DNA from: a virus
Lineage: Duplodnaviria; Heunggongvirae; Uroviricota; Caudoviricetes
Length of the DNA: 64,000 nt
Direction: 5' to 3' (one strand)
Virus record (IMG/VR): IMGVR_UViG_3300012940_000021
Span: 63,912 to 127,911 of that record
The notes under the pieces are model-generated. The model was not told the origin of the DNA, ran no database searches, and was given only the letters and a program-made list of their open reading frames with translations. Made by a program: the position numbers and the translations under genes. Position 1 is the stretch's first letter. Every line of letters starts with the position of its first letter. Of the stretch, positions 7,153 through 24,974 are shown piece by piece.

Positions 7153-7737
7153 CGTGACTTCCTCTTCCTTGGTCTCGGTGGCTGGTGTCAGGACCACCAT
7201 CTGGTTTGTGATATCGGCCCCACGAGCCGACGCTGCGATGACCTCTTCGAATCCGTCGAGGTCGGTGACGTAGGGACGGTTGGTGATGGCCGTGTGAAGG
7301 AGGGTCGGTCCCACCTTCTGACCGGTCTTGGTGTCGGTGTAGTTCAGGTGGAGCATGGCGCTCGCCCCGAGCAGGGTCTTGCCCACCTTGTCCGCGTCCT
7401 CGGTGCGCACGTCGATGTCGGCGTAGAGACCCTTCGGGGTCTTCACGAGGTTGATGACCTCACCAATGTTCCGGTCCGGGTCCTCGGTGTGCTCGTTGTT
7501 CGGTCCCGCCTTCGGGACCTGAACGATGTCGGCCACCTTGTTGCTGAAGTTGGTGATGAGGGTGTCCACGAACTCCTCATCGACCTTCACCTTGCCGCCC
7601 TTGACGCCGGGGTAGATGAGGTCGCCGTAGTGCAGGATCTGCTTGCGGAAGACGCGACCCTGCTTCGAACGCGACAGCGGAATGAAGCCCTCGTCCTTCG
7701 TGGGAGGGACGATAGCGAAGCCATCGAAGTCGGTCAT
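6628..7737 (-). CDS. capsid maturation protease/scaffold fusion-like protein (369 aa): N-terminal globular domain plus C-terminal Glu/Lys/Ala-rich coiled-coil scaffold domain
   Basis: ATG at 7737 directly abutting conserved motif (leaderless arrangement); C-terminal half strongly coiled-coil-like. Confidence 0.55.
   Translation of the reverse strand: MTDFDGFAIVPPTKDEGFIPLSRSKQGRVFRKQILHYGDLIYPGVKGGKVKVDEEFVDTLITNFSNKVADIVQVPKAGPNNEHTEDPDRNIGEVINLVKTPKGLYADIDVRTEDADKVGKTLLGASAMLHLNYTDTKTGQKVGPTLLHTAITNRPYVTDLDGFEEVIAASARGADITNQMVVLTPATETKEEEVTMTLDELLAELKTDHGIDVAALQAKAAEADKALALSNKIQEELVGTGLLKLSNTDETVDADTLIGAVAEAGNKIVELTNSVNEIREEAAKKEAQAEVEKLSLSGFILPKDKEAMLELRLTNKDLFDKLIPEKPVVKLSVEEGFQPADESHEETVEQEIARLSNIAAEKTSAKVRA
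7201..7221 (-). promoter_or_regulatory. left-arm conserved motif copy 3 (GGGGCCGATATCACAAACCAG) located inside the protease/scaffold ORF
   Basis: 13-mer core TGTGATATCGGCC identical to intergenic copies. Confidence 0.5.
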
Positions 7738-7757
7738 GCTATGTGATATCGGCCTCT
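7738..7757 (-). promoter_or_regulatory. left-arm conserved motif copy 4 (AGAGGCCGATATCACATAGC) immediately followed by ATG of the protease/scaffold gene
   Basis: motif-CATAGC-ATGACCGAC identical to copy at 26211. Confidence 0.6.
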
Positions 7758-7828
7758 GCGCCGCATACTTGACCATCTCGCAGACATGCCGAAGGCCCCC
7801 GCCGAAGCGAGGGCCTCCGTGCTCCCGG

Positions 7829-9085: not shown

Positions 9086-9361
9086 TTACTGCGACTGGTA
9101 CTGACTGCGGGCGTCGAGGAGGATCTCCTCCAGGTCGATGCGGTCATCATCGACCGATCCCCACCAGAAGCGGTGATTCGCGGAGCGTGTCTTCTCTTCC
9201 ACGAAGACATCCCAGGGAACGCTCGTGCCCTTGTACCCGACGATCTGCTCGCCCTGCTTCTGGAGCTGCTCGAAGCCCGGCTGGTAGAACACGTCACCGA
9301 CCTCGGAGAAGATTCCGACCGGTTCGCCCTCCAGGGTCTTGTGGATCAAGAACAGGGCCAT
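9086..9361 (-). CDS. hypothetical protein (91 aa)
   Basis: ATG overlapping TGA of upstream gene; complete ORF. Confidence 0.5.
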   Translation of the reverse strand: MALFLIHKTLEGEPVGIFSEVGDVFYQPGFEQLQKQGEQIVGYKGTSVPWDVFVEEKTRSANHRFWWGSVDDDRIDLEEILLDARSQYQSQ

Positions 9362-9657
9362 CAGAACTCCTTCATCGTCGTCTTGATGGCCTTCTCCTGC
9401 TCCGCCGAGAGGGGGGCGAACCGGAAGCGCCGACCCTCGGAGTGGAAGACCCAATCGCCGTCCTCGCGGACCATGATGTCCTCGGGGTAGAACACCATGT
9501 CCTTCATCGGCAGCGCCCAGCCGATGACGACCGTCTTGCCCTGGTCTTCTCCGACCTCGACATCGACCATCTCGAAGTTCGGGCGCTCGCCCTCCTGGGC
9601 GACGATCACACCGTGCGGGAAGGCCCGGTGAAGCTCCTCCTGAGTCACTTCGTCCAC
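9361..9657 (-). CDS. hypothetical protein (98 aa)
   Basis: ORF overlapping 13 nt with the end of the giant gene. Confidence 0.5.
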   Translation of the reverse strand: MDEVTQEELHRAFPHGVIVAQEGERPNFEMVDVEVGEDQGKTVVIGWALPMKDMVFYPEDIMVREDGDWVFHSEGRRFRFAPLSAEQEKAIKTTMKEF

Positions 9658-12600
9658 TGAGCCTTCACCTTCGCAATCGCTGCCTGCAAGTTTACGCGCA
9701 TGACGAACCGATCCTCGATGGGCAGTCCTCGGAGCATGGCGAAGCCGAGCGCCTTCATGCGCTGGATGGCCTCGTTCCGCTTCTCGGCGTTGTCGAAGAC
9801 GAAGATCTCCAGGTGGTCGAGGATCGACATCGCGTTCGGAACCATGGTCTCGTTGCTCGATCCGGTGAAGCTGGTCAGCGCCTTCAGCGGGTCGTACTTG
9901 TTCTGGCTCTGCTGGTCCGTGCGATCACCGAAGCGGTCGCCGGAGAACGAGTAGGTGTCCACCTGAGTGAAGACCGACGGGTTCCAGTAGGCCACGTGCT
10001 TGCCGTAGATCGAGCCGGAGAACTCGACGCTCGCCCCGGTGTGCGCGATGCGCGTGAAGACGCTGTTCGCGCCACCCGTCCCCTGGTCGGAGCCGGAGGA
10101 GGCACCCTGCTTGAAGTAGCCGAGGATGCGCAGACGCTCCTCCGTCGAGAGCATTCCACCCGACGTGATGTAGCGCAGGAGCGAGTCGTCCTTGCCGTTG
10201 TTGCCGATGGCCACCATGTGGCCCTTCTTCAGCACCTGCTCCAGGTCCACATCGATGCGCTCGTAGTACGGCTTGCCCGTGGCCAGCTCCGGGTTGGCGA
10301 GGTCCATGTGGTTGAACTTCGGCATGTGCTTGCCCTGGGCGATGAACGAATCGACGCGATCCTTGCCCCAGGCTTCCTCCGAGATGCTGCGGTAGAACGC
10401 CAGCTCTTCGGTGTCGCTCATGCTCAGGCCGATGCCTTCGATGAGGGTCCAGTCGGTGAGGTTCTCCCCGTTCGGTCCCTTGACCGTCTGCTTCTTGTCC
10501 TTCAGCTTCTTCAGGGCGCTCTTCACCGTGGCTGGGGCGCTCGACTCCGCGTAGGTGAAGATGACGCGCTCCCACATCGCACGCCAGTAGTTCAGCTCCG
10601 CCTGGGTCTCATCGGCCCCCGTGAGGTCGAGGCCCATGAGTTCGAGCTGGGACTGCACCCGAGCGAGCGAGGCTTCCTTGTCCGGCCCGACGAGGCGGAA
10701 CGACACGGTGCCGCGCTGCGACCGAGCGGTGTTCGTGCTCGTGGAGTTGCGGAAGAAGATGACCTCGCCGGACGGCAGCGTGATCCGGTACTCCTTGCCG
10801 GTGTGCCCGGACGTGCCCTCGTCCTTCGAGTTCTCGACCTTCAGACCACCCTCGTTGAGGGTGCCGCCCTTGCCCGCCGCAGACTGGACGGTGTACAGGA
10901 CCTCCTTGACCGCCTCCTGCGGCTCGGCCTCGACGTTGTTGGTCCAGCCGTCCGGCAGGGCGTTGGGGTCCACCGGCAGCGCCCCGACCGAGACCTCGGA
11001 CCCCTTGGACGAGAGCCACTGCCCGTTCGCCAGCTCGGTGTAGGTGATGCCGTCGGGGCTGACGATGATCCGCCCCTCGACCTTCGGAGCGAGGCCCTGG
11101 AAGACCGTGAAGTCGCCCTTGTTGGTCGTGCCTCCCTCGGAGATGGCCGTCTTCACCTTGCCGATCTGGGTGAAGTAGTGGTCCAGCATCATCTTGTACT
11201 GGGAGAGGTACTCCGGCGCGACTCGCTTGCCCGACGGGAACTCCACGTAGTCGGCGTTGCCCTCTGGCTCCAGGTCCGGCTTCCAGAAGGCGGCGTCCGC
11301 CAGGAGGGTCTGCTCCAGGCTGTTGAACGCCGAGATGATGTCGGGGTCGTACTCCTTGTCCACCGAGTTCTTGGTGACGTTCTTGCCCGCCGCCGTGATG
11401 GTGGACTTCCAGTCGTTCGTCGTTGGGAACTGTGCCTGGTTCAGGTAGATCGGCTGGGTGTTGACCGAGTTGACCTGAACCTGCTGCGCCTTCGGCTGGA
11501 GGAAGGCCAGCAGCTTGTTCTGGGCGAGGTCCCCGAGCGTGATCTGGCCCTTGTGCAGCTCCTCCCCGGTCTCGTTCTGCTCGGTCCAGAGCAGCGAGTG
11601 GCCGTTGTGGATCGAGGCGCTTCCGTGCAGCGGGGCGGCTCCCCAGACCTTGGTCTCGGCTGCCTTGTCGAGAACGCCCGGCTCGTCCCAACCGGAGATG
11701 TGCTCCTCGAAGACGGTCGGCGGCTCCTCGGGGAGTCCTCCGAATCCGGCGTCCTGGAAGATCTTGTCCCACATCTGGTCGATCTGCTCGACCAGCTTGC
11801 TCTTGCGGTGGAGGAACGCCTTCACGAGCTGGTCCGCGTTCGCCGGAGCATTGCGGTGCGTGAAGTGGGTCATGTAGTCCGGCACGTCCCAGTTCGTGCG
11901 GAACTCGACCGCCTCGCGGACCATCTGCTCGGCAGCGGCGTCGTCGGACTTCTGGATGCGGGACGCCGCCTTGCGGGCACCCTGGTACGCCTTGACGGCG
12001 GTCTCGTAGTCGATGGTGCCGTTGCGGATCTTGTCGTAGAGCTGGGTGTAGACCAGGGTGGCGTTCGTGTGCGCCGAAGCGTCCCCAGAGATGCCGTTCC
12101 AGTTGCCGTAGACGAAGAACGCCCGCCCCTTGTCGATGCCGACCACTCCGCCGCTCGGCGTCATCAGGAGGTTGTCCGGGTGGGTGTCGTCGTTGTCGAG
12201 CGCCCAGTCGAGCACGTGCTCAGCCGCGATGGCCGCGAGCTGCTTCTCGTTGAGGGTCTCCATTTGGATCTCGCCATCGCCGTTACCGGCGAACGACCCT
12301 ACGTTGTCCACGAAGTTCTGAATGAGTCCCTCGTGACCGTCCTCGGTGGTCGCCATGACCGTCTTGGCCGACTGGAAGCCCCACATCCGAGCCAGCTCGT
12401 TGGCCTTGTGCTCCATCTGGGCGCGGGCCTTCTGGTCCTCGCTGTTCCAGGGCTTGAAGATGTACTTCCGGTCGAACTGGTCCTTGACGAGCCAGACCTC
12501 GTGGCTGCCCTTGTCGATCTGCTCCACCTTGAAGTACTTGGGCTTGTTCAGCTCCTCCAAGTACGCGGCGTGCTTGGCGTCGAAGTAGGCGGCGACGATC

Positions 12601-15600
12601 TCCTCGGACTTGTACTTCGTGCTGTAGTCGGTGTTCGAGGGGTCCCACTCCAGACCCCCGACCGACGTGTCGTAGTTGGAGTAGAACTCCTTGAAGTCCG
12701 GGTCCTGGAAGTGGTCCTTCGCCCAGTCGGTCGTCACGTCGTAGGGGGTGGCCTTCCAGATGCTGCCCTGCGGCCACGGAGTGTCCGGGTTGTTTTCGAA
12801 AACGTGGTCGTAGCTCTTGGCGGGCTGCACGTCGTCGGTCCAGGTCGGAGCATCCGAGAGCGCGGCGTCGCCGTTCTGCTTGCGGACCTGCGCGAGCGCG
12901 GAGAGCTGGTCCACCTTCTCCTTCTGGCCCTGCTTGTGAGCGAGGACCCACTGGCGCTTCTCCGCGTTCGACAGGAACGTCGGGTTCTGCATCTGGGCCT
13001 TGATGAGGTAGTTCTGGATCTCCGGGAGGGATGGCTCGATGCCCGGCGAGGTCCAGTTGCCCTCCACCGGCTCACCTGCCGGAATCTCCCCCTCGACGGC
13101 AGGCCCCCAGGTGATCTGATGCGTGGCCTCGCTGCCCTCGTAGCCGGGGTGCAGGTAGCCCGAGTTGTGGGCCTTCCCCTCCTTGGCAGCCGCCGAGACC
13201 TCGATCTGGTAGAGCGCCTTGAAGTCGCCCTTCTTGAACGCCGCGACCCACTTCTGGCGCTCCCACTTGTCCATCTTGGTCAGGTGCTGGCCGATGATCT
13301 TGCCGTCACCGATGGACGCCGACGCCGCCTTGATGTACGAGCCGAGGGAGTTCTTGTCGTAGGAGTTGACGGTGAGCGCCGCGACCGAGGCGGGGAACTT
13401 GGCGTAGCCCATCTCGTTCCACTCGAAGAGGTCGGCGGCGTTCGCCTCGGGCGTGCTGGTGTCCACCCCGGAGAGGAGGCCGTCCATGGCCTCCTTCAGT
13501 GCCTGCACCGCGTTCTCGGGGGTGTTCTCCGTGAAGCCGTTCTCCGCACGCCACTTGACCCAGAGCGGCTGCTGCCAGAAGACGCCGAGGCTCTTCAGCT
13601 TCTCGCCCATGGCGTAGGCGCTCTCGTCCGTCACCGTGTCGAGGTACTGCCGAGCCTGCATCAGCGACGGGACGGTCGTCTGCGAGCCGAAGAAGAACAC
13701 CGACCCGGTGTAGCCCTCTGGCAGCACGGACATGCCGAACTTGTCCGTGAGCTGCCCCTTCGAGAAGAGCGTGTTGACCTTCTTCTTGTCGAACTCCACC
13801 GGGTCCTGGAGGCCGTGGCTGAGGACGTGCGAGTAGTAGGTGGCCCAGATGTTGGGCTGTTCCTCGGGAGGCTTGACCTCCTCCCCGGTCTTGGGGTCCG
13901 TGAAGTGCCACTTGCCGTCGGAGTGCTTCGTGGCCTCGTAGGGCTGCACGTACTCGCCGTCTTCGTAGTGCGAACTCGTGACCTCGTACTTCGCTCCCAC
14001 GCCTGCGGCGTTCAGCCAATCGGTTGTCGGGTAGCCCCCGATCTTGACCCCGGTCATGGCGGTCACGTCGGTCTTGGGCTTGAAGATCTTCGCCGTGTCG
14101 GTCGAGACCTCGTAAACCGCCGTCTTGGGGTTCTGCGGGCTTCCGGCGAAGTAGGTGCCCGGAGTGAGATCCGACACGACGACGGGCTTCTTCGGCGCGG
14201 CCTTCGCCGTGGGCGACGGGATGTCGTCGGGCATCCCGTGGTACTCCTTCATGCCCTTGTCGTAGTTCGTCTTCACCGCCTTGGCCGTGAGCTTCGACAC
14301 CCCGCCCTTGGTGTTGACGTAGACGCCCGTGCCGTCGGCGGCGACGACCATGTACGCCTTGCCTCCCGGCGAGGAGTACTTGCCGGGCACGATCTCCGGG
14401 TTCTCATTGAGGGTCGGGTTCTCCACCGGGGAGAAGTCCCAGTCGCCCTGCATGGCGTTGAACATCTCGGAGTCGTTCATGAACCCGAAGCCGTTGTCGG
14501 AGAGGTTGTCTCCCGTCTTGGCGTCGTAGATCGTCCAGTGGTCCTCCCCCTCCTTCACCGCGACCATCTGGAAGTCCGTGCCGGGCGCACCGTTCTGAGC
14601 CTTGGTGCCGACCGGAGCGTCCTGGACCACCTTCAACGAGAAGTCACCGTCGTCCTTGCTCAGCTCCTCCTGCTGCTTGTCCTGGAGCGCCGGAGGGGTC
14701 TTCGCGTAGTCGGGCAGCACGTCCGGCTTCGACTCGATGCGGAGGAACCCGTTGTCGATGGCCCCCGAGAAGGAGTCCTCGCCCAGCACATTTCCACTGC
14801 CGTCGTCGGTCCACTGCGCCGCGCTGATCTTGGTGTAGGTGTGCGGAATCCCTCCGGTGCCCTGCCAACGCACCACGGTTCCCACAGGGAGACCCGACAG
14901 CTCTTCGAGGCTCTTCACCTTCGGGTGCTGGATGTCGGTCTCCGTGCGGACCAGCTTGGCCTTCAGGAGGTCGATGAACTTCTGCTTGGTGACCGTCTTG
15001 TCCTTGTCGAAGCCGACGATGGAGTTCGGGTTGAGAGACCCGAGAGCGTTCATCTTCTTGTTCAGCTCGGACTTGAAGTTCTTGCCCTGGAACGATTCCA
15101 GGATGTCGATGGCCTGCTGGACCTGGGACATCGTGAACTCTCCGCCGTCCATGCCCTGCACGCCCGTGCTCTTCGGCGTCTTCGAGCCGATCCAGACCTT
15201 GGGGGCGTTCTCCTCCTCGACGCTCGTCCCTTCCTCGATGCCGATGGAGTCCTTCAGGTACTTGATGACGGCAGGCTTGGCCTTCAGATCCGGGTACTTG
15301 TTGAGCGCGGCGACCTTCAAGGACTCCTGGTTCTCGGCGCTCTTCAGCGGGTTGCTGTCCGGCAGCGCCTTCAGGCCGTAGCTGACGTGGAAGGACGAGT
15401 GCTCCTCCAAAGCCTTGTACGCCTCCGCGATCTGGATGGAGGACATGGCCGGAGCACCTGGCCAGAGCTGCTTGTCCTTGGCTCCGAAGCTGCTCTCCGG
15501 GGCCTTCGGCGCGACGTAGCGCAGATTCCCCGCCGCGACGGCATCGCCCATGTCGCCGGGCGTGAACGCCAGGTTCGGCCACTTCGGATCGTCGGCGGGA

Positions 15601-18600
15601 GCCTTCCAACCCTCCTCGGTCTTGTCCACGAAGTTGAGGAAGTTGCCCGCCTGGTCGAACATCGCCAGCCGCTGTCCCACCGGGAAGGCGTTGACGTGGG
15701 CCATCTTCGTGATGGCGTCGCCCTCGGCGTAGCCGAACTCGTTGACCTCGCTGGGGGACGGGACGTTCGGCTCCAGGGCAGGAAGCGAGAAGACGGTGAA
15801 CTTCTGGCTCTTGGCCGAGCCGGAGAGCTGCGACGCCGCGTAGACGTTGCCCCCCGGCGTGAGGAAGGCCCCGTTGTCGAGCTTGGTGTAGTAGGTCTTC
15901 GACCCGTCCTTCTTGGTGTACTCCAGCTTCGTGCCTGGCAGCAGCGACTCCAGGTCCTCGACGCTCGTGATGGTGTGACCCTCGCCCCACTCCCAGGGAG
16001 CCTGCTCCTCAGCCGACTGGCTCTGGAGCGGAGCCGGGACGTAGTAGTGCTTGTTCCCCCCTGGAGCGAAGAAGATGTCGTTGAGGGTGAGCATCCCGCC
16101 GTCCAGTCCAGACGGAAGCAGGGCGCTCCACTCGTCGCCGTCCTGGGCCTTCGTGTAGGTGATGATCTTGCCCTTGCCGGTGACCTCGAAGATCTGGTCC
16201 CCCGGCTTCGGGGCGTGGGTCACGATGTCCTTGTTGACCAGGACCGCGTTGGTGGGCACCCCCTCAGGCAGGTCGTCGTCCGTCGCCGGAGCCTCCGACT
16301 CGCTCGTCTGGTCGGGCACCAGATGCGGAGACTCCTCCGGCAGCGGGAGCGAGTAGTGCTCCGCGATGTACTTGCGACGGGCGAGGAGGGTGTTCGCCAT
16401 GGACTCGTCCATGCCGTACTCCGAGACCATCTCCTGGATGCGCTCGGGCGACAGGTTGACGATCCGCTGAGCACCGTCCAGCTCCTCGGCGTAGGTCATG
16501 TCCGATCCGAAGACCGCCGCCTTCTTGCCGGTGCGGTAGCTCTCCAGCTCGGTGACGCTCGGACCGAAGTCGGACCCCTTCGCGCTGCCCATGGCGCGGT
16601 ACTTCAGCGCGCCGCCGTTGTCGATGCGCCACGGGTTGCCGTCCTTGTCCGTGAGCACGTTGTCCCACGACAGTCCGAACACATCCCAGTTGGCCAGCCA
16701 GGCGTCGATGGCGAAGTCGCGTCGGACCTTGGAAAGCCACACCTGGTCGTTGAGCCGGGCCTGCATGTCCTGCTTGCCGTCCACGATCTTGGAGTAGATC
16801 TGGCCATCCGAGGCGACATCGACCTCGGGGGCGTTCACGCCCAGCTCGCGGTAGAGCGCGTTGGCCAGCGCCTCGTTGTTGCCGTGATCGGCGGTCTGCG
16901 GCTTCTTGACGTAGTACTTCGCCGGGCCGTCCGGCGTCGGCAGCTCGTAGAGGCCCCCCGGATTCGAGCCGCTCTGTCCACCGATCTTCTTCGCGCCCTC
17001 GTCCGTGATGAGACCGTGGCTGGGGATCGGCTCCTGAGTGGCCGGTGCCGGACCAGCCGTCAGGGCAGCGCCGTACTGCGCCAGCTCCTCATTGGAGTAG
17101 GTGTTGCCGTTCGCCCACGACAGCCACTGCCCGTTCGACTGCTTGGTGAGAGTCACGCCGTCGAGGTTCACCTGAGCGCCGGTCGGCGCGATGGCCAGGT
17201 GGTTGCGCTTCTGATCGACGGTCAGGTCCGGCGAGTTGAAGATCGGGGAGAAGCCCGAGATCGGCTCTCCAGGGTCGGCGGGCTGCTCCGGCTCCTGGGT
17301 CCCCGTCGGGGTCACGAGCGTGAGCTGATCGCGCATCGCGTACATGACGCCGTGGGACACAGGCTTCTTCTTGCCGCCCTGCGTCCAGGTGCCGTTCTCC
17401 TGCTTGCGGAACGGGACCTGACCCTCCTCCGGGATGAGCTTCGAGCCGACCGGAGCGTTCACCAGTGCGGTCGAGAACTCGACATCCGTCATCTCGGCCA
17501 ACGGCTTGTCGGCAGCCGGAGCCTCCTGAGGCTGCTGCTTGGTCGAGTTGCCCTTGAAGGCGTAGAGCTGCTCCGGCTGGTACTCGCCCTCGGAGGCCAT
17601 GACCGCCGTCATCAGATCTTCTTCGGTGACTCCGGCCTGCGGGTGGGTGAGGTTCTTCCACGAGCCGTCCGGCTGCTTCTCCACGAGGTCCGCCGCCTCA
17701 TAGTGCGGGGCGTCGCCGTCGGCGGTGTTCTCCTCGAAGTCCGGGTCGTAGCCGATCAGAATCTTGTCGCCCGGCTGGGCGTTCGTGATGTCGTCCTGGG
17801 TCGCCTCGGCGGTGTAGTCGTAGTCGCCGGGGAAGAGGTAGTGCGGGGATTCCTCGCTCAGGATGTCGAGCGGGGCCATGTCCTCGTGCCAGATGAGATC
17901 CGTCGAGTTGACGTTCGGCTCGTCCTCATCGACCTCCGGTGGCAGCGGCTTCGACTGCTTGGTGGCGTGGATGTAGACCTTCTCGGCACCACCGTCCACG
18001 ACCATCGCGTTCATGGCGACCTGGCCGAACCAGTCCTCGTCGTCATCGACGTTGGACCAGATGGCGAGGCCGTCCCCGGAGTCGGTCAGTTCGTACTCGG
18101 AGACCATCGCTCCGTTGTCGAAGGCCACGAGCACGCGGTCACCGATGGTGGAGACCTGCATGTGGCCGGGCGTGGCCAGCTCGGTGTAGTCGCCCTCGCC
18201 GGGCACGAGCTTGGAGGTCGAGCGGGGCTTGTCCCGCTTCGGCAGCTCCGGCGCGGGGCCATCTCCGATGTCCGGCGCGAGGATGGCGACGTTCTCCGAG
18301 GTCAGGTCGTTGCCGGTCTTGCTGGACTTCCAGGTCCCGTCCTCGTTCTTCGTGAGCGTGGCCTCGCTGTCCACCATGTAGATCTGGTGGCCGACCTCCG
18401 CGCTGTCGAGGAGTCGCTGAACCTCCGCCACGTTGGAGTTGCCGTTGATGGCGGAGATGTCCTTCGGCTTCGGACGCTTCGGCTTGGCCGGTGCCGGAGA
18501 GGGCTGCTCGGGCTGGGGTCCGTCCGCCAGCCCCTCCGGGCCGATGGCAGCCAGGAGCGCGTTGGTCGAGACCACGACCCCCGTGCTGCTGTCCCAGTCG

Positions 18601-20075
18601 CCGTCTTCACGCTTGGTGAACTCCCGGTCGCCATTCGTCTGGTGGATGACGTGACCGACTTCAGCCGCGTCGAGCAGCTCCTTGGTGTCGGCTTCGGAGA
18701 GGTCGGGACCGAGCGCGCTGAGGTCCGGCTGCTCAGTGGACTCCTGCGGAGCGGAGGAGTCCCCACCGTCGAGTGGAGAGCCAGCCGGAGCCTTCGGCTC
18801 CTTGCCCTCCTTGGCGATCTTCACGTCGCTGTTGTTGACCGCGATGGCGGACTTGAACGACTCGGCGTCGAGCTGGCCCCCGAACTGATTCGTCCAGGCG
18901 TCGCCCTCCTTGTCCTTGGTCCAGTTGGTCTTGTTTCCAGCGGGCGACGTGTACGTGACCTGAGCGCCGGGCAGCGCCTTGTCGATCCAGTCGTTCGTCG
19001 GGGTGTCGCCCACGGAGACAGGCGCGGGCTTGGAGGCTGCCTCTCCGTCGAGCGGATTCACCGACTTGCCATCGAGCGGGTTGTACTCCGGCTCCTCGGG
19101 AGCACCGATGGAGAGGATGCTCTTCAGGTGCGCGAGGTTGTCCGCGCTGACGCCCTGAGTAGTGCCCTCGTCCTGTCCGTCGAAGGTGCCTTCCGAGTTC
19201 TTCACGAAGGGGCGATCCGCCACCATGACGGTGACCCCCTCGGGAAGCCCTTCGAGCGCCTGCAACGCCTCCTCGAAGTTCATCTCCCCGAAGTTCATCG
19301 CCTCGGTGTTGGCGAAGGTCTCCTCGACCACGGAGATGTCGTCGTCGCTCGTGTCGGGCACGAGGTCACCGGAGTCGTAGAGGTCCTGGAGATCGGCGTC
19401 CTTCAGTCGCACCCCAAGATCCACGTGCTCCCAGGTGTCGTCCGCGAGCTTCTTGAACTGAGGGGTGCCTCGACTGTCCACGAGGGTCGCGCCCACCTTC
19501 AGGGCGTTGAGGCTGACCGACCCGCTCGTGGCCTCGAACTCCTCGACGGAGTAGTTCTCGTCGCCTTCGAAGTCCGGTCCGAACTTGTTTTGGAAAACAG
19601 CGGTGAGAGTCTTCGGGATCTCGATCTCGCCAGCCTCGTTGAAGGCGTGAACGGACCCGTCGGGGGTGACGACGTAGGCCATGCCCGGCTGAGAGGCCGG
19701 ACGGATGAGCTTGGAGCCGTTGGGCGCGGTGTACTTCGCCTTGCCGATGCTGAAGTGCTTGTTGCCCGTGAGCGTGGACTTCTTGATCTTGAGCTTCAGC
19801 TTCGGCTTCTCGGCAGGCTTCGGCGCGTTCTTCTCGGAGGCTGCCTTGCCGGAGATGGTGCCCTGCGACATGAAGCCGCCTGCGGCGCTGCCCGAGGAGA
19901 TGGCTCCCTGCGGAGGGGTGAGGCCCTGGGCTGCGGCCTCGGCGTTCTTGGCGTCGATGATGTCCTTGGTGATCGGAGCGCCGATGGGCAGCCCGTAGAA
20001 CTGAGCACCCTCCGGGGTGCGCACTCGACGGACGGCCAGCTCCAGGACCTGGGACTCGAACTGTTCGACGCTCAC
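9645..20075 (-). CDS. giant multidomain protein (~3,476 aa from GTG at 20075; longest ORF extends to 20273 = 3,542 aa). Candidate virion-packaged 'polyvalent' protein: N-terminal capsid-targeting-like motif, >=10 copies of a ~35-40-aa repeat, two HipA/APH-like kinase catalytic-loop motifs
   Basis: uninterrupted 10.6-kb frame directly downstream of MuF; GTG with GGAG SD after conserved motif+palindrome; motifs HVLDWALDNDDTHPDNLLMT...GGVVGIDKG and AIDAWLANWDVFGLSWDNVL...RIDNGGAL. Confidence 0.8.
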   Translation of the reverse strand: MSVEQFESQVLELAVRRVRTPEGAQFYGLPIGAPITKDIIDAKNAEAAAQGLTPPQGAISSGSAAGGFMSQGTISGKAASEKNAPKPAEKPKLKLKIKKSTLTGNKHFSIGKAKYTAPNGSKLIRPASQPGMAYVVTPDGSVHAFNEAGEIEIPKTLTAVFQNKFGPDFEGDENYSVEEFEATSGSVSLNALKVGATLVDSRGTPQFKKLADDTWEHVDLGVRLKDADLQDLYDSGDLVPDTSDDDISVVEETFANTEAMNFGEMNFEEALQALEGLPEGVTVMVADRPFVKNSEGTFDGQDEGTTQGVSADNLAHLKSILSIGAPEEPEYNPLDGKSVNPLDGEAASKPAPVSVGDTPTNDWIDKALPGAQVTYTSPAGNKTNWTKDKEGDAWTNQFGGQLDAESFKSAIAVNNSDVKIAKEGKEPKAPAGSPLDGGDSSAPQESTEQPDLSALGPDLSEADTKELLDAAEVGHVIHQTNGDREFTKREDGDWDSSTGVVVSTNALLAAIGPEGLADGPQPEQPSPAPAKPKRPKPKDISAINGNSNVAEVQRLLDSAEVGHQIYMVDSEATLTKNEDGTWKSSKTGNDLTSENVAILAPDIGDGPAPELPKRDKPRSTSKLVPGEGDYTELATPGHMQVSTIGDRVLVAFDNGAMVSEYELTDSGDGLAIWSNVDDDEDWFGQVAMNAMVVDGGAEKVYIHATKQSKPLPPEVDEDEPNVNSTDLIWHEDMAPLDILSEESPHYLFPGDYDYTAEATQDDITNAQPGDKILIGYDPDFEENTADGDAPHYEAADLVEKQPDGSWKNLTHPQAGVTEEDLMTAVMASEGEYQPEQLYAFKGNSTKQQPQEAPAADKPLAEMTDVEFSTALVNAPVGSKLIPEEGQVPFRKQENGTWTQGGKKKPVSHGVMYAMRDQLTLVTPTGTQEPEQPADPGEPISGFSPIFNSPDLTVDQKRNHLAIAPTGAQVNLDGVTLTKQSNGQWLSWANGNTYSNEELAQYGAALTAGPAPATQEPIPSHGLITDEGAKKIGGQSGSNPGGLYELPTPDGPAKYYVKKPQTADHGNNEALANALYRELGVNAPEVDVASDGQIYSKIVDGKQDMQARLNDQVWLSKVRRDFAIDAWLANWDVFGLSWDNVLTDKDGNPWRIDNGGALKYRAMGSAKGSDFGPSVTELESYRTGKKAAVFGSDMTYAEELDGAQRIVNLSPERIQEMVSEYGMDESMANTLLARRKYIAEHYSLPLPEESPHLVPDQTSESEAPATDDDLPEGVPTNAVLVNKDIVTHAPKPGDQIFEVTGKGKIITYTKAQDGDEWSALLPSGLDGGMLTLNDIFFAPGGNKHYYVPAPLQSQSAEEQAPWEWGEGHTITSVEDLESLLPGTKLEYTKKDGSKTYYTKLDNGAFLTPGGNVYAASQLSGSAKSQKFTVFSLPALEPNVPSPSEVNEFGYAEGDAITKMAHVNAFPVGQRLAMFDQAGNFLNFVDKTEEGWKAPADDPKWPNLAFTPGDMGDAVAAGNLRYVAPKAPESSFGAKDKQLWPGAPAMSSIQIAEAYKALEEHSSFHVSYGLKALPDSNPLKSAENQESLKVAALNKYPDLKAKPAVIKYLKDSIGIEEGTSVEEENAPKVWIGSKTPKSTGVQGMDGGEFTMSQVQQAIDILESFQGKNFKSELNKKMNALGSLNPNSIVGFDKDKTVTKQKFIDLLKAKLVRTETDIQHPKVKSLEELSGLPVGTVVRWQGTGGIPHTYTKISAAQWTDDGSGNVLGEDSFSGAIDNGFLRIESKPDVLPDYAKTPPALQDKQQEELSKDDGDFSLKVVQDAPVGTKAQNGAPGTDFQMVAVKEGEDHWTIYDAKTGDNLSDNGFGFMNDSEMFNAMQGDWDFSPVENPTLNENPEIVPGKYSSPGGKAYMVVAADGTGVYVNTKGGVSKLTAKAVKTNYDKGMKEYHGMPDDIPSPTAKAAPKKPVVVSDLTPGTYFAGSPQNPKTAVYEVSTDTAKIFKPKTDVTAMTGVKIGGYPTTDWLNAAGVGAKYEVTSSHYEDGEYVQPYEATKHSDGKWHFTDPKTGEEVKPPEEQPNIWATYYSHVLSHGLQDPVEFDKKKVNTLFSKGQLTDKFGMSVLPEGYTGSVFFFGSQTTVPSLMQARQYLDTVTDESAYAMGEKLKSLGVFWQQPLWVKWRAENGFTENTPENAVQALKEAMDGLLSGVDTSTPEANAADLFEWNEMGYAKFPASVAALTVNSYDKNSLGSYIKAASASIGDGKIIGQHLTKMDKWERQKWVAAFKKGDFKALYQIEVSAAAKEGKAHNSGYLHPGYEGSEATHQITWGPAVEGEIPAGEPVEGNWTSPGIEPSLPEIQNYLIKAQMQNPTFLSNAEKRQWVLAHKQGQKEKVDQLSALAQVRKQNGDAALSDAPTWTDDVQPAKSYDHVFENNPDTPWPQGSIWKATPYDVTTDWAKDHFQDPDFKEFYSNYDTSVGGLEWDPSNTDYSTKYKSEEIVAAYFDAKHAAYLEELNKPKYFKVEQIDKGSHEVWLVKDQFDRKYIFKPWNSEDQKARAQMEHKANELARMWGFQSAKTVMATTEDGHEGLIQNFVDNVGSFAGNGDGEIQMETLNEKQLAAIAAEHVLDWALDNDDTHPDNLLMTPSGGVVGIDKGRAFFVYGNWNGISGDASAHTNATLVYTQLYDKIRNGTIDYETAVKAYQGARKAASRIQKSDDAAAEQMVREAVEFRTNWDVPDYMTHFTHRNAPANADQLVKAFLHRKSKLVEQIDQMWDKIFQDAGFGGLPEEPPTVFEEHISGWDEPGVLDKAAETKVWGAAPLHGSASIHNGHSLLWTEQNETGEELHKGQITLGDLAQNKLLAFLQPKAQQVQVNSVNTQPIYLNQAQFPTTNDWKSTITAAGKNVTKNSVDKEYDPDIISAFNSLEQTLLADAAFWKPDLEPEGNADYVEFPSGKRVAPEYLSQYKMMLDHYFTQIGKVKTAISEGGTTNKGDFTVFQGLAPKVEGRIIVSPDGITYTELANGQWLSSKGSEVSVGALPVDPNALPDGWTNNVEAEPQEAVKEVLYTVQSAAGKGGTLNEGGLKVENSKDEGTSGHTGKEYRITLPSGEVIFFRNSTSTNTARSQRGTVSFRLVGPDKEASLARVQSQLELMGLDLTGADETQAELNYWRAMWERVIFTYAESSAPATVKSALKKLKDKKQTVKGPNGENLTDWTLIEGIGLSMSDTEELAFYRSISEEAWGKDRVDSFIAQGKHMPKFNHMDLANPELATGKPYYERIDVDLEQVLKKGHMVAIGNNGKDDSLLRYITSGGMLSTEERLRILGYFKQGASSGSDQGTGGANSVFTRIAHTGASVEFSGSIYGKHVAYWNPSVFTQVDTYSFSGDRFGDRTDQQSQNKYDPLKALTSFTGSSNETMVPNAMSILDHLEIFVFDNAEKRNEAIQRMKALGFAMLRGLPIEDRFVMRVNLQAAIAKVKAQWTK

Positions 20076-20087
20076 GACGCTCCAAAA

Positions 20088-20128
20088 TCTTCTGGCCAGA
20101 AGAATGTCTGCTCTGTGATATCGGCCTC
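20088..20128 (-). promoter_or_regulatory. left-arm conserved motif copy 5 (AGAGGCCGATATCACAGAGCAGACA) followed by 16-bp perfect palindrome TCTTCTGGCCAGAAGA, upstream of the giant gene
   Basis: seen in sequence. Confidence 0.6.
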
Positions 20129-20349
20129 TACTCGTCTTGCCGAACGGCCCCTGGAATCGCCTCGACCTTCTCCACAACCTCCGAGATCTCACCTTCGAGC
20201 AGGAGACCGCTTCGATAGACCGTCGTGGCGTCGAGTCCACCGAAGCGGTAGCTCTTTTCGGTGGTTCGAGCATCGAGAACTACGGCCAGCAGCCCAGCCG
20301 CTGCCGACGGCACCGAGTCGAAGAAGAATCTTGTGGTCGAACTAGCCAT
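20128..20349 (-). CDS. hypothetical protein (73 aa)
   Basis: ORF overlapping 8 nt with MuF stop. Confidence 0.45.
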   Translation of the reverse strand: MASSTTRFFFDSVPSAAAGLLAVVLDARTTEKSYRFGGLDATTVYRSGLLLEGEISEVVEKVEAIPGAVRQDE

Positions 20350-21145
20350 CGTCGCCTCCCCGACGCACGAACGAGATGATTCGCTGGAGGGTCCTCACGA
20401 CGGCCCGGAAGATCATGCCGGGCATCCTCTTCACGTCCTCGGTGGTCATCGTGAGCGCACCTGGCCCTGGAGAGTCGATGTCGAGTGTCTCCAGGGTGTT
20501 CGCCAGGGTCACGATGAGGATGGCGAGGTAGCACTGGCACCGAGGATGGCGAGGAGGTCCGAGCAGGTCCCCGTAGACCTTCAGCCGGTTGTCACCGGTC
20601 GGGAACTCCTCGTGCAAGCCGACCTCGGTGCCGTGGAGTGCGCGGCAGTACTCGCAAGGCGTGTTGTTGACGAAGTTCGCCAGCCAGATCTTGCGGACTC
20701 GGTAGCCGAAGTCCTCCAGCTCGGTGTACGCCTGGATCATCGCGTCGGTGTAGCCTCGCTGGGCTGCGACCCCGGCGCTGTGCTGCATCCGCAGGATGGC
20801 TCGACGGCGAGCCTTCTCGTCGCGGCTGCTCTTCTTGTACTCACGGAGATTCCGGCGCACATCCGCGAGAAGATTCTGGAGGTACTCGGAGTTGAAGATC
20901 TCCGTGGGCGTCCATCCGGTGAGGCCGGACTCTCGGACCGCATGCGCAGAGGCCACGGCTGCGCTCGCTCGGTAGGCGCTGCGCACGATGGCTTCGAGCT
21001 GCCAGCGCACCGACTGCGGGCTGAAGCGCCCCTGATCCCACGCATCGAAGGTCGCGGCAATCTGCTGCCGAACGGTGGCCTCCAGGGCGCGGGCAGCGAG
21101 ATGAGCCTGACGGGCAGCCCGGAGTTGTTCCGCGAAGCTCGCCAT
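20342..21145 (-). CDS. MuF-like head morphogenesis (minor capsid) protein (267 aa)
   Basis: C-terminal PCEYCRALHG...HPRCQCYL cysteine pattern of phage F-like/SPP1 gp7 family; position after portal. Confidence 0.75.
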   Translation of the reverse strand: MASFAEQLRAARQAHLAARALEATVRQQIAATFDAWDQGRFSPQSVRWQLEAIVRSAYRASAAVASAHAVRESGLTGWTPTEIFNSEYLQNLLADVRRNLREYKKSSRDEKARRRAILRMQHSAGVAAQRGYTDAMIQAYTELEDFGYRVRKIWLANFVNNTPCEYCRALHGTEVGLHEEFPTGDNRLKVYGDLLGPPRHPRCQCYLAILIVTLANTLETLDIDSPGPGALTMTTEDVKRMPGMIFRAVVRTLQRIISFVRRGGDDG

Positions 21146-21507
21146 CAGCCCTCCTCGGGCTTCTGCTCCTCCGCCGCGTCAGCCAGCTCCGAGAGCACTG
21201 GGGTGCCGGGACGAGCCTCTCGGAACTGCTTCACCGCATTGGTGAACTCGCTCTGGATGTCCTTCATGAGGGCCGTGTTGCCCGTGCGCTTGGCCTCCAC
21301 GAACTGAGCCTGGAGAGACTTCAGACGCTCGATGGTGACCGGACGAGCGCCGCCTTCTGGAGCCTCCTCTCCACCCCCGATTGGAGACCCGATGGGCTTG
21401 CCATACAGACGAGCGCCCGCATCCGTCGCCACTCGACGGACCGCCAGGCTCACGAGCGAGGAAAGCTCCTCGCGCTCAGTTGGAATCGACGGCATCGAGC
21501 AGGTCAC
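21145..21507 (-). CDS. hypothetical protein (120 aa) sharing an N-terminal ~30-aa motif with the giant protein
   Basis: SLVSLAVRRVATDAGARLYGKPIGSPI vs giant VLELAVRRVRTPEGAQFYGLPIGAPI (17/31 identical). Confidence 0.6.
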   Translation of the reverse strand: MTCSMPSIPTEREELSSLVSLAVRRVATDAGARLYGKPIGSPIGGGEEAPEGGARPVTIERLKSLQAQFVEAKRTGNTALMKDIQSEFTNAVKQFREARPGTPVLSELADAAEEQKPEEG

Positions 21508-23053
21508 CCGCCATCCTCATCAGCTCCGAGTAGGCGTCCAGCGGCTGAGAGAGCTGCATCGCCTGCTCTTCGAAGTCCCGGAGGGCCTGGTCCTCTGGAG
21601 AGGCCGGAGCTGGAGGCCCGCCTGGAGCCGGGGCCACTGGACCGCCAGGGAGTGGCTGACCGTCGGGACCCAGGGCCGGGACGGCTCCGCCTGCGGCAGC
21701 GGCGAGCTGCGCCTGAGCGGCTGCCTGCTCCTCCTCGATCCGACGATCCACTTCGTCGTAGTCGATCTCCAGGCCCATCTCCTCGGCCACGACCTCCTCC
21801 AGCGCCCGCATGAACTCGGGGGTCGCGTTGACGCTCTGACCCGCCGAGGCGAGCTTGTCGAAGGTGGCCGAGATGGCCTGCTTCTGCTCGTCGGTGAGCT
21901 TGCCCCAGGTGAAGGTCGGGTACTTGCCCCCGTCGAAGTTGAAGTCGATGAGCTGCGGGATGATGTAGTGGTTGATCTGGTTGGCGATGTCGTCCATGAT
22001 GGCGCGGAGCATCAGGATGAACATGTCGTCGCCCGGCTGGGCGAAGTTCACCATCGAGCCTTCGCCCTGGCCCGCGCCGGTCTCCTTGTCCATGAAGCCA
22101 GCGAGCATCGACTTCGACATCTGGTTGTTGTGGTGGTTGATGAGGTTCAGGTACTCGAAGGACCCGGCCTCCTTCAGCAGCTCCACCTTGAAGCCGTCCG
22201 GCACCATCATCCACTGGGCCAGGGCGAGGTTCGCCAGGTTCTGCGCGAACTCGCGCTTCGCACCCATCGAGGCGTTGGGCGGAACGGTGCCGATGCGGGT
22301 GCCGACGGCGGCTCGCTGCGCGGCCAGGTGGGCGGTGTAGTAGAGCTTGACCTTCTTGTCGTAGTGGTAGAAGGCGCTCTGGAAGAACGAGACCCCGTAG
22401 AACTTCCGCTCCTCCTCCTGGGCCGCGTAGTAGAAGCAGTACTCCGGCTCGATGTACACGTCGGTGACCTTGCCGCCGTTGGTGGCCCGCTGGCGGATGC
22501 CCGCGAAGCCACCGCCCTTGTCGGTGACGAAGGTGACGGTCTCGCTCGGGCGGTAGGCGAGCTTCTTCAGGGTGATCTTGCCCGCGAGCGGGCCGAACTC
22601 TGGACGCCAGAAGACCTTCTCGAAGGCGGCGAATCCATCGAACAGAGCGCCGAGGAGCTGACTCATGAAGCGGTGGAAGGTGACGCTCATGCCGCCCTGA
22701 GCTGGAGGCGTGTGGAAGACCTGCTCGATGAACTCGGCCTCCTTCTCCCCGCCGTCGGCGGGAACGAAGGTCGCCGTGCTGAGCGCGGCACGAATGGGCA
22801 GCGAGAGGAGTCGGAACAGCGCTCGCGCCTGACCGTCCATACGCCGCATCGTCACGAGCTGTCGGACAGTCGGCCCCATCTCCTCCGACTCGTCGCGGAG
22901 GATCTCCTGAAGCTCCTCGTCCACGCTCTTCTTCAGGCCGACCGAGAACGGACGGAATGGAGTCGTGAACGCGAGGTTCTGATCGACGCCCTGCTCGACG
23001 CCAAGCTCCGGGACCTCGGTCTTCTCCGGCGCAGTTACGTCTTCACCAGCCAC
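21476..23053 (-). CDS. portal protein (525 aa)
   Basis: size and position directly downstream of terminase large subunit; overlaps TerL stop. Confidence 0.7.
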   Translation of the reverse strand: MAGEDVTAPEKTEVPELGVEQGVDQNLAFTTPFRPFSVGLKKSVDEELQEILRDESEEMGPTVRQLVTMRRMDGQARALFRLLSLPIRAALSTATFVPADGGEKEAEFIEQVFHTPPAQGGMSVTFHRFMSQLLGALFDGFAAFEKVFWRPEFGPLAGKITLKKLAYRPSETVTFVTDKGGGFAGIRQRATNGGKVTDVYIEPEYCFYYAAQEEERKFYGVSFFQSAFYHYDKKVKLYYTAHLAAQRAAVGTRIGTVPPNASMGAKREFAQNLANLALAQWMMVPDGFKVELLKEAGSFEYLNLINHHNNQMSKSMLAGFMDKETGAGQGEGSMVNFAQPGDDMFILMLRAIMDDIANQINHYIIPQLIDFNFDGGKYPTFTWGKLTDEQKQAISATFDKLASAGQSVNATPEFMRALEEVVAEEMGLEIDYDEVDRRIEEEQAAAQAQLAAAAGGAVPALGPDGQPLPGGPVAPAPGGPPAPASPEDQALRDFEEQAMQLSQPLDAYSELMRMAGDLLDAVDSN

Positions 23054-24974
23054 CGCTCATCCCCTTCATTCCGATGGGCAACCCGAGGTTGCCCTGCCCG
23101 AAGCTCAGCTCCGCCATCCCGACCAGCGGGGCGACGGCATCCCCCACTTCGAAGAAGCCGACCCCGACTTCTGTGATCTCGTGCTCGGGGTCTTCCTCGC
23201 CTCCGAGGTTGATGGCTCCCACGATAGAGCACGCGAGTGCGTCAGCCTCGTCTTTCGACCCGCCAGGCGGGTGGTCCACCTTGCCCTTGTCGCCCCGAGA
23301 GAGGGCCTCCAGCTCATCCATCAGGCGCTGGCTGAACGGCATGTAGAGGCGCGACTCGCTCGCCACGTCCTTCAGCGTCTTCCAGATGTCGGGGTCCCGG
23401 TCCGTGCTCACCCGGTCCGATTCGATGCCGTGGGAGAGCAGGATCTGGATCGTGTCCGTGCTCTGGAACCCGTCGAAGGTGAAGGAGCCGATCCAGAAGC
23501 CCCGCTTGATGAGTTCGAAGGCGAGCATGCGCGCCCAGCGGATCTGGATCTCGCGGGGGAGCTTCGACCCGTCCTCGTCCTTGGCCGACACGTCCGCCTC
23601 GAACGAGATGGTGAAGTCGTTGCGCAGGATCGGCACCGTCGTCGGCACCTGCACGATGAAGCCGGTCTCGTCCTCGACCTCCGCGATGCGCTCCTCCCAG
23701 CGCTCCACGTGGCTCATGGCGATGCCCGCCCGGTCGCCCTTCACCGCGAGGTCTCCGTGCATGGCGTAGCGAGCGCCCGCGATGGGCTTGAAGTCTGGGT
23801 CGAAGGTGAACACCGGCTCCCAGCCGCGCACCGTCTTGCCGGTCTTGGGCGAGGTCACCGCCGTGACCCGGTAGTCGATCTGGATCGGTTGGTCGGCGCG
23901 GTCCACGGCCTGCTTGAAGATGACCGGGTTGCGGAAGTAGGCGTCGGTGGCTCGGGTCGGCTTGCACTCGTACATCGAGGCAGCCTCGTCCGGGTCCTTG
24001 TCGTAGTCCTCCTGGAAGTCCTCCGGCCCCTTCACGCGAGGGTTGACCTCCCACGTGGCCAGCGGGCCGGACACGTAGTGGATGCTCTTCTCGCCGTACT
24101 TGGCGATGGAGTCGCGGCCCTCCTTGGTCTGCTTCTGGATGGTCGATCCGAGGTAGCGGGGGTAGGAGATGGTGACGCGCTTGTAGGTCTGCGGGAATCG
24201 GGTCGAGGCCGACCCCTTCAGCATCTTCAGGATGGACTCGGCGGAGGTCGATGCCTCTCGGGCGCGATTGCCCAGACCGACCATCTCGTCCTTGGCGCGG
24301 AAGGCGTCGATCTCGTCCGCGACGCCGAGCATGATGTTCAGACCCTCCTGGCTCTCGGCGTCCGAGTGGCCGGAGATGGCGATGATGTGCTTGTCGTACT
24401 CGATGATGTTCTGCTTGGCGTCGGCCTTGTCCTTGAACCAGCCGCGCTTGACCGCCTCTCGCATCGGGGTGAAGAAGGCGTTCATGGCCTGCGCCGAGTT
24501 CGCCGCGATGTTGAGCAGGTGGATCGAGTCGAAGTCCGGCATCTGGAAGTAGCGCTGCGGCGACTTCATGCAGAGCAGGAGATACGCCACCCGGAGCGAC
24601 GAGAACCGGGCGATGGCGTCCTTGCCGGACCCCTTACCCCACTGGAGCGTGATGATGTTCTTGACCGGGATGTCCTTCGCCCAGTACTCCTTGGTCTTCG
24701 GGTCATCGAAGCCCTCGGCCATGAGCGGGTACAGGTCCGGGTAGAAGATTCGCTCGATGTGCCGGACCGCATCCTCCTGCACTTCGGAGAGGTCGATGTC
24801 GGGCAGGTTGAGGAACTTCGAGTCCTGGATGAAGGTGCGCAGATCCACCGGCTCCTCCCAGAAGATGTCCTCCAGGGGGGACGGTGGGGTCCAGACCTCT
24901 ACCTCCGGCTCTGCGAAGGCAGCCGACATCTCCAGCGGGTTGCGGATCAGCCGAGGCCCGAGTTCGAGAGCCAT
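23043..24974 (-). CDS. terminase large subunit (643 aa)
   Basis: Walker A-like LQWGKGSGKD, Walker B GVADEIDAF, C-terminal RNaseH-like nuclease region HGDLAVKGDRAG. Confidence 0.85.
   Translation of the reverse strand: MALELGPRLIRNPLEMSAAFAEPEVEVWTPPSPLEDIFWEEPVDLRTFIQDSKFLNLPDIDLSEVQEDAVRHIERIFYPDLYPLMAEGFDDPKTKEYWAKDIPVKNIITLQWGKGSGKDAIARFSSLRVAYLLLCMKSPQRYFQMPDFDSIHLLNIAANSAQAMNAFFTPMREAVKRGWFKDKADAKQNIIEYDKHIIAISGHSDAESQEGLNIMLGVADEIDAFRAKDEMVGLGNRAREASTSAESILKMLKGSASTRFPQTYKRVTISYPRYLGSTIQKQTKEGRDSIAKYGEKSIHYVSGPLATWEVNPRVKGPEDFQEDYDKDPDEAASMYECKPTRATDAYFRNPVIFKQAVDRADQPIQIDYRVTAVTSPKTGKTVRGWEPVFTFDPDFKPIAGARYAMHGDLAVKGDRAGIAMSHVERWEERIAEVEDETGFIVQVPTTVPILRNDFTISFEADVSAKDEDGSKLPREIQIRWARMLAFELIKRGFWIGSFTFDGFQSTDTIQILLSHGIESDRVSTDRDPDIWKTLKDVASESRLYMPFSQRLMDELEALSRGDKGKVDHPPGGSKDEADALACSIVGAINLGGEEDPEHEITEVGVGFFEVGDAVAPLVGMAELSFGQGNLGLPIGMKGMSGGW

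Follow-up and report, generated by a model that had tools for sequence, protein, structure and literature searches.

The 64-kb window analyzed here is the whole stretch of 64,000 nucleotides (nt) at positions 63,912 to 127,911 of the IMG/VR virus record IMGVR_UViG_3300012940_000021, a ~128-kb tailed phage (Caudoviricetes) whose head genes are all on the minus strand. Two proteins encoded in this region, a giant protein and a small protein, carry the same short peptide near their N termini. This peptide is a sequence module that is widespread but had not been described before, and we assign it to a class of known function, the packaging signals of injected head proteins. We favor, at about even confidence, the interpretation that it is a portable tag for head cargo that tethers or loads its carriers at or near the portal-MuF vertex, MuF being the minor head protein encoded beside the portal. 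The two genes and their motif cores are listed with sizes in amino acids (aa) and with scores from a hidden Markov model (HMM) of the motif.

9645..20075, minus strand: giant protein, putative cargo, 3476 aa, GTG start at 20075; the tag is followed by a long, poorly annotated body.
19962..20033, minus strand: motif core in the giant protein, V15-D38, VRRVRTPEGAQFYGLPIGAPITKD; HMM E = 9e-13, kept in 9 homologues.
21145..21495, minus strand: small tagged protein, 116 aa, ATG start at 21495, supported by the starts of its homologues.
21370..21441, minus strand: motif core in the small protein, V19-G42, VRRVATDAGARLYGKPIGSPIGGG; HMM E = 3e-11, kept in 17 homologues.

The two N-terminal regions were compared by BLASTP, and the sole alignment pairs SQVLELAVRRVRTPEGAQFYGLPIGAPI with SSLVSLAVRRVATDAGARLYGKPIGSPI. 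The match begins at S8 of the giant (nt 20054) and has 17 of 28 identical residues, 21 positives, no gaps, and E = 1e-8 for the pair, which becomes about 1e-5 when scaled to the six-frame content of the window. Nothing aligns between these regions outside the 28-residue stretch. The peptide was first noticed in a sequence-only reading of the window, and its location in both minus-strand genes and the unrelatedness of the remainder of the two proteins are borne out; the 17 identities it counted also stand, over 28 aligned residues and not 31. The motif HMM, built from 253 instances, ranks the giant and the small protein first and second among the window's open reading frames (ORFs), and the third-ranked ORF in all six frames has E = 0.009.

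The likeness is kept up at the level of the peptide. The run of DNA that had been described as 18 identical nucleotides, CTGGC[C/G]GTCCGTCGAGTG on the coding strand, is present but matches at 17 of 18 positions. Under the whole motif 56 of 84 nt are identical (67%), with no exact run longer than 12 nt, and the two genes use different codons for 7 of the 17 identical residues. The codon differences indicate that selection acts on the peptide and that it is not a recent DNA copy; together with the 67% identity and the short exact run, they rule out a recent duplication or gene conversion. The wider explanation, that the likeness is chance or a nonfunctional local duplication or conversion, can point to that one run of 17 in 18 nt, but it must contend with the BLASTP score, the codon differences, and retention of the motif in distant relatives and in 804 protein clusters (below). 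We consider its probability negligible, and conservation across relatives already refutes it.

The gene boundaries were refined with homologues. The small protein had been read as 120 aa at 21145-21507; the ATG at 21495 is the likelier start, and 16 homologues begin MPS, MLS, or MAS. The protein consists of the tag, an acidic/Gly linker, and a conserved three-helix domain (RPxTIERLKSLQAQF...). Its gene overlaps the last 20 nt of the portal gene (21476-21495) and is read in the +1 frame; no obvious slippery site is visible by eye in the overlap. The giant starts at GTG 20075 (MSVEQFESQ...) with GGAG 4 nt upstream, and its homologues begin at the same residue. The ATG at 20273 of the mechanically called ORF is not its start, and a conserved 73-aa gene occupies 20128-20349.

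The logo of 261 instances reads [VI]-R-[RH]-V-R-T-[PA]-[AE]-G-[AV]-[RK]-[RK]-[YF]-G-[QL]-P-I-G-[STA]-x-I-[VT]-x-D. The motif spans ~24 residues, the edges of the logo are sharp, and proline shows a mild enrichment (1.6-fold) in the adjoining downstream segment. A search for the motif on other cargo in relatives, which the sequence-only reading had proposed, was carried out exhaustively with HMMER using a 34-position profile against 1.84 billion representatives. It identified 804 protein clusters at the E<=1e-3 threshold, of which 93 also pass E<=1e-10. A word-indexed protein search with the motif alignment, a method of limited sensitivity, gave 5 short fragments only. Matches by tblastn were found in Gordonia and Brevibacterium phages and in Microcystis phage Mwe-JY05, often at two or three places per genome, in proteins annotated as ADP-ribosyltransferase, capsid maturation protease, HNH, helix-turn-helix (HTH), or hypothetical. 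Isolates rarely have the motif (29 of 50,697 phage records). A degenerate DNA pattern was found at only 6 places in the bacterial genomes of 185,579 species (Gordonia, Pseudonocardia, and contigs of metagenome-assembled genomes), and the tag is thus rare in bacterial genomes.

The motif does not correspond to a described family. Six short carriers gave no Pfam match to it at E<=10, a synthetic double consensus gave only a chance-level Pfam match (Wzi, E = 0.11), no NCBIfam or PHROG model covers the 24 residues, and the motif strings were not found in the searchable literature. Kinship with LysM, raised by a weak match in Cantare gp12, was rejected because LysM starts just after the motif without overlap, and an HTH or other known domain was rejected because no profile matches even at E<=10. 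A variant, RRVRDxxYWGxPxGTPI, occurs in Hanem (L004) gp26 and gp27, on a VIP2-like ADP-ribosyltransferase toxin and its neighbors, and in VanLee (L018) gp128; judged by sequence, it may be a sister motif.

The other genes of the head region and its surroundings are as follows.

23043..24974, minus strand: large terminase (PHROG 17415, weak), aligned within the region of 76% nt identity with Microbacterium phage Magritte.
21476..23053, minus strand: Mu-type portal, 525 aa (Pfam Portal_Mu PF06074, E = 2e-35; PHROG 113, E = 5e-44).
20342..21145, minus strand: MuF-like minor head protein, 267 aa (weak PF04233, E = 9e-4, and head-morphogenesis PHROGs).
20128..20349, minus strand: conserved 73-aa gene between MuF and the giant (homologues at the same position, 10 loci).
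7829-9064, minus strand: endolysin with Amidase_2 and PG_binding_1/3 (PHROG 7698, E = 1.5e-33).
6628..7776, minus strand: Mu I-like scaffold, possibly a protease-scaffold, 382 aa (Pfam PF10123, E = 8e-5, sub-threshold).
4942..6054, minus strand: major capsid protein, which closes the head block (PHROG 29, E = 1e-30; Pfam Phage_cap_E, E = 3e-26).

The order is terminase, portal, small protein, MuF, 73-aa gene, giant, and, further on, scaffold and capsid protein. The module looks Mu-like, with portal H, F, I/Z, and capsid in order, because a Mu-type portal, a sub-threshold Mu I-like match, and a capsid protein occur in that order. The two tagged genes do flank MuF, as the sequence-only reading had it, but the 73-aa gene separates MuF from the giant. 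The MuF-like protein scores 20.4 bits against PF04233, below the cut-off of 29.6; it matches nine head-morphogenesis or portal PHROGs, is 58% identical to Magritte gp15, and has 210 homologues, many with a precomputed PF04233 match. A fold search found no solved MuF fold for comparison. The 73-aa gene overlaps the MuF stop (ATGGCTAG) and gave no family match; its counterparts of 71-75 aa are Magritte gp16 and proteins at the same position in 9 metagenomic relatives. The Mu I-like scaffold is 51% identical to the Magritte gp19 'scaffolding protein', and protease activity of the product is conceivable from its sequence. The untagged endolysin gene lies within the head block, between the giant and the scaffold, at a point where Magritte has no gene.

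The giant is encoded among the portal-terminase late genes, as are the polyvalent proteins discussed below. Its body has a weak PI3/PI4-kinase-like match at aa 2560-2655 (Pfam, E = 1e-3) and no PDB or NCBIfam match. By eye, a second segment at aa ~1110-1200 (GGLYEL...YYVKKP...NEALANALY) resembles this one. Another tag carrier, P0008 (P and L numbers denote the proteins and loci of our collection), has a clearer PI3_PI4_kinase match (E = 3e-8).

Magritte is the only isolated relative, with 76% nt identity over terminase and portal and the same gene order. The motif occurs there in gp14 (108 aa) as well as in gp17 (1991 aa). Magritte gp17 aligns with the giant over the first ~170 aa, a mid-protein region (19% identity over ~440 residues), and a short repeat, and most of the rest does not align. 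The motif is retained ahead of the conserved helical domain in all 17 small-protein homologues, and all 9 homologues of the giant begin with it. No homologue checked had lost the motif. Because the conservation is at the protein level, the motif is translated, and the possibility that the true starts lie downstream of it is set aside. The synteny of terminase, portal, small protein, MuF (266-268 aa), 71-74-aa gene, and giant is kept on contigs of ~110-130 kb (L007 and L023-L026). The small-protein family was found at only two loci in the IMG/VR contigs and two in the JGI contigs. One relative, L025 (1-1402), has an intein with a LAGLIDADG endonuclease in its terminase gene and an additional Endonuclease_7 gene inserted ahead of the giant.

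Tag carriers were then compared by gene position. They lie between the portal and capsid genes in the window, Magritte, DalanDe, Cantare, Hanem, Forza, Mwe-JY05, L007, and L009-L010; L008 encodes several tagged proteins, and its capsid gene was not identified. This placement holds in all but one of the loci examined. The exception is Gordonia phage VanLee, where gp127, gp128, and gp130 (an acetyltransferase) have an N-terminal tag or variant outside the head module. The VanLee genes (L018 3956-7512) are at 68-71 kb, far from the head genes, and HRDAIRR precedes the tag in gp127 and gp130. As in the window, a short peptide is common to otherwise unrelated proteins in Magritte, DalanDe, Forza, Mwe-JY05, and VanLee. 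The cyanophage Mwe-JY05 (L006) repeats the arrangement of the window, with the order portal, a tagged 390-aa protein (7558-8730), a 72-aa gene, a tagged 1669-aa giant with a winged-helix domain (9091-14100), scaffold, and capsid protein. The two Mwe-JY05 tag copies share the flank VVELARYVRT, and the 390-aa gene is annotated 'capsid maturation protease' with no Pfam match.

The position of the tag within proteins was also mapped. In 93 of 147 carriers no more than 60 residues separate the first copy from the N terminus, 18 proteins start with the motif, and both window copies are N-terminal (residues 15-38 and 19-42). Of the top 150 proteins, 57 carry a single copy and 71 carry two, whereas the others reach as many as 6-7; the median spacing between copies is about 300 residues. 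L009 has 12 copies across three consecutive giant genes. In the six proteins mapped with Pfam (P0006, P0007, P0009, P0010, P0011, and a DalanDe protease fusion) the copies always lie between domains. These polyproteins are most simply fused tag-cargo cassettes. A domain of ~70 aa that lies between the portal and MuF parts of the DalanDe (L002) portal (aa 590-660) recurs in the tag-bearing proteins P0009, P0010, P0045, P0062, P0116, and P0141; it ends 2-54 residues before a tag copy in P0045, P0062, P0116, and P0009.

The module could chiefly serve maturation processing, the prohead protease recognizing the motif or an [E/D]-x-K just upstream of it, while targeting is achieved by other means. 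[ED]xK occurs 0-4 residues upstream of 58% of copies compared to 8% of control 12-mers, the copies lie between domains at the spacing given above, and carriers encode S78 or Mu I-like proteases. In P0120, P0007, and P0116 the tag is at the MuF/cargo boundary, where release from the portal would need a cut. However, an invariant block of 22-24 residues far exceeds the needs of known prohead-protease sites, and the 18 proteins that begin directly with the motif (MARYVRT..., MVERKVRT...) have nothing to remove. The window family lacks the lysine, with ELA in place of ExK upstream of the tag, and both of its copies are N-terminal. Processing as the chief function is unlikely on these grounds, but it is compatible with the T4 precedent, in which the targeting peptide is also the cleavage unit, and by that analogy it may hold alongside cargo loading. 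Autoproteolysis at the conserved Thr was considered separately from sequence alone and rejected; the module is too small, and many copies are at the very N terminus.

A census of 50 tagged proteins identified topoisomerase IB (Topo IB) in 10, zeta toxin in 5, 2H RNA ligase in 5, MuF in 4, PG_binding_1 in 3, ADP-ribosyltransferase in 2, and a glutamine deamidase toxin in 2. Other cargo domains are Tad3 anti-Thoeris, LysM, GNAT, a PI3/PI4-kinase-like domain, and the S78 prohead protease (DalanDe gp27). Some carriers combine domains, such as GNAT with Topo IB (P0011), 2H with Topo IB (P0009), and MuF with DUF7178 (P0007). Attachment to many toxin and anti-defense domains, with one copy ahead of several mapped effector domains, would also be expected of a module that acts after injection, by binding a conserved host component or by refolding or localizing effectors in the host cell. 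Against such a role, the motif is shared by phages whose hosts are Actinobacteria and a cyanobacterium, with lineage-specific variants, and its carriers include a prohead protease fusion, the portal itself, and the small nonenzymatic protein, for which no host target is obvious. We regard action in the host as very improbable.

The fusions associate the tag with the portal. Two IMG/VR relatives, L019 (ORF from nt 2294, 698 aa) and L020 (from nt 2396, 632 aa), have the small tagged protein as an in-frame extension of the portal C terminus. In portal structures generally, the C terminus, or crown, faces the head interior. P0120 is a single chain of 2239 aa with portal at 68-495, MuF at 734-823, tags at 905 and 1189, and cargo, and P0007 and P0116 are MuF-tag proteins. 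The tag of the L020 fusion has lost three of its most-conserved positions (17 vs 32 bits); this single case would fit a docking constraint relaxed by covalent attachment. The Pfam families of portal and capsid vary among carriers, for example PF06074 with Phage_cap_E in the window and PF04860 with Phage_capsid in L010. A MuF domain is present in most carriers checked (window, DalanDe, Cantare, Forza, and L009; weak in L008). Core identity is 0.61 between copies within one protein vs 0.52 between proteins, and the tag has lineage-specific C-terminal extensions (HP in L009; RD in L010 and L011; GE/TxD in the window). Because of this within-protein coherence and these extensions, the sequences suggest that the tag co-evolves with a phage-encoded partner.

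The small protein was modeled with AlphaFold2 (AF2) using 17 homologues. The tag is predicted as a strand, a short helix, and a strand with a pLDDT confidence score of about 75, followed by a confident helical domain. Fold searches with this model and with a joint model of the small protein and MuF (below) gave nothing significant. A small strand-helix-strand unit with conserved basic residues and a net charge of about +3 to +4 in the logo could also be a DNA handle, in which case the module would bind the packaged DNA or its leading end and act in ejection and not in assembly. Retention of the tag in portal fusions fits such a post-assembly role, and the P1 DarA-Hdf proteins touch both capsid and DNA and exit with the DNA (PMC12810830). 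But profile searches brought up no DNA-binding family even at E<=10, the motif is very small for a sequence-independent DNA binder, and its lineage-specific extensions suggest a protein partner. We judge a DNA handle distinctly improbable.

Several known systems offer precedents for cargo loading. In T4, a short capsid-targeting sequence (CTS) on IPI-III and Alt directs these proteins into the prohead; the cargo includes an injected ADP-ribosyltransferase, and targeting is coupled to cleavage by the prohead protease. The likeness is a short peptide common to otherwise unrelated proteins of one phage. The T4 CTS, which is about 10 residues long, strictly N-terminal, lineage-specific, and not known to be related in sequence to the motif, differs from the present module, which has ~24 residues, occurs in hundreds of lineages from phages of two host phyla, is often internal or repeated, and also exists in fusions with portal and MuF. 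The cargo-loading peptides of encapsulins and the C-terminal tail of the HK97 protease are likewise short portable peptides that dock cargo on the interior of an HK97-fold shell. Those peptides are C-terminal and bind the shell, whereas the tag is N-terminal or internal, the capsid families vary, and the fusions point to the portal, so the comparison is an analogy only. On that analogy the tag might serve phage heads of the Mu/HK97 type in general for loading and delivering cargo, as an equivalent of the encapsulin peptides, and it would be recognized by the portal-MuF vertex. We hold this broader proposal only tentatively.

The T4 packaging system is discussed in PMC9024508, as is P1 DarB, a giant (250 kDa) injected protein packaged via its first ~30 residues. 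Incorporation of DarB needs the DarA-Hdf adaptors on the inner capsid wall (PMC12810830). In the window, too, a 3476-aa protein and a small companion share a tag beside the portal, and the small protein may be loosely comparable to these adaptors. In contrast, the P1 adaptors are at penton-hexon junctions whereas the fusions here point to the portal, and the P1 signal is neither shared with an adaptor nor repeated, as the tag is. No sequence kinship with the P1 system was apparent; the Pfam LPD domains of polyvalent proteins gave no match. Iyer et al. 2017 (PMC5512222) describe polyvalent proteins as large multidomain products of late head genes predicted to be packaged and injected, with ADP-ribosyltransferase, kinase, GNAT, 2H, zeta-toxin, peptidoglycan-binding, and MuF domains; MuF and portal fusions are the link to the head, and about 40 domains are new. 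Motif carriers have these architectures, and as judged from their domains the cargo repertoire fits that of virion-delivered polyvalent proteins. The present cargo is mostly tagged and not fused to MuF, and a short inter-domain tag did not turn up in term searches of PMC5512222.

Our proposed model for the portable tag is as follows. While the procapsid assembles, the tag would dock its protein onto a conserved internal component, for which the portal-MuF vertex complex is the likeliest candidate; the docked protein would thereby end up inside the head, placed to leave along with the DNA at ejection. For the window phage, the 116-aa protein would be a detachable extension of the portal crown and the tagged 3476-aa protein an effector-type cargo. 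In other phages, the tag-cargo cassettes would be separate genes or polyproteins with one tag per roughly 300 residues, and the frequent upstream [E/D]-x-K would be a possible maturation cleavage site separating cassettes. The tag perhaps also marks maturation cleavage boundaries. The capsid-targeting part of the sequence-only proposal finds contextual support in the portability of the tag, its head-gene context, the injected-type domains, the N-terminal bias (93 of 147), VanLee, and the portal and MuF fusions. Its description as an N-terminal docking signal does not carry over intact, because the tag is not simply N-terminal (2-7 internal copies) and is kept in portal-fused proteins that need no targeting. 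Simple N-terminal targeting is therefore an incomplete story. Both the internal copies and the retention of the tag would make sense if the module combined targeting with cleavage, as in T4, or if it acted in ejection.

Several observations weigh against vertex loading as we favor it. The repeated internal copies and the tags kept in portal fusions (P0120, L019) are superfluous for simple targeting, and one tag per domain is not required because the giant of the window has a single tag in 3476 residues. Co-occurrence with MuF does not discriminate because MuF is common in tailed phages, and MuF was not found among the Microcystis phage proteins scanned. In the AF2 model of the small protein and MuF as a single chain, with an alignment for MuF only, the two did not dock; MuF was confident and the motif had pLDDT 37-54, and because the alignment covered only MuF this result carries little weight. 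Virion proteomics for carrier phages was not found in the literature.

Among the carrier phages, Magritte, Cantare, DalanDe, and Forza have been cultured, and their hosts are available. The known capsid-targeting peptides, those of T4 and P1 DarB, are each restricted to a lineage and came to light phage by phage; a conserved tag would change that. If the broader proposal of a general tag is correct, sequence alone could suffice to list the full set of virion-injected effectors, including toxins, anti-defense proteins, and topoisomerases, for hundreds of uncultured phages, and the same handle would expose toxins and anti-defense proteins such as Tad3 that are now dispersed among giant ORFs called 'hypothetical'. 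Foreign proteins could then also be given the tag, so that actinophage heads take them up and deliver them to Gordonia, Microbacterium, or related hosts. For the biology of these phages, such a tag would link cargo loading, which is poorly understood for giant injected proteins, to the portal-MuF vertex, and it would explain the actinophage polyproteins as concatenated tag-cargo cassettes.

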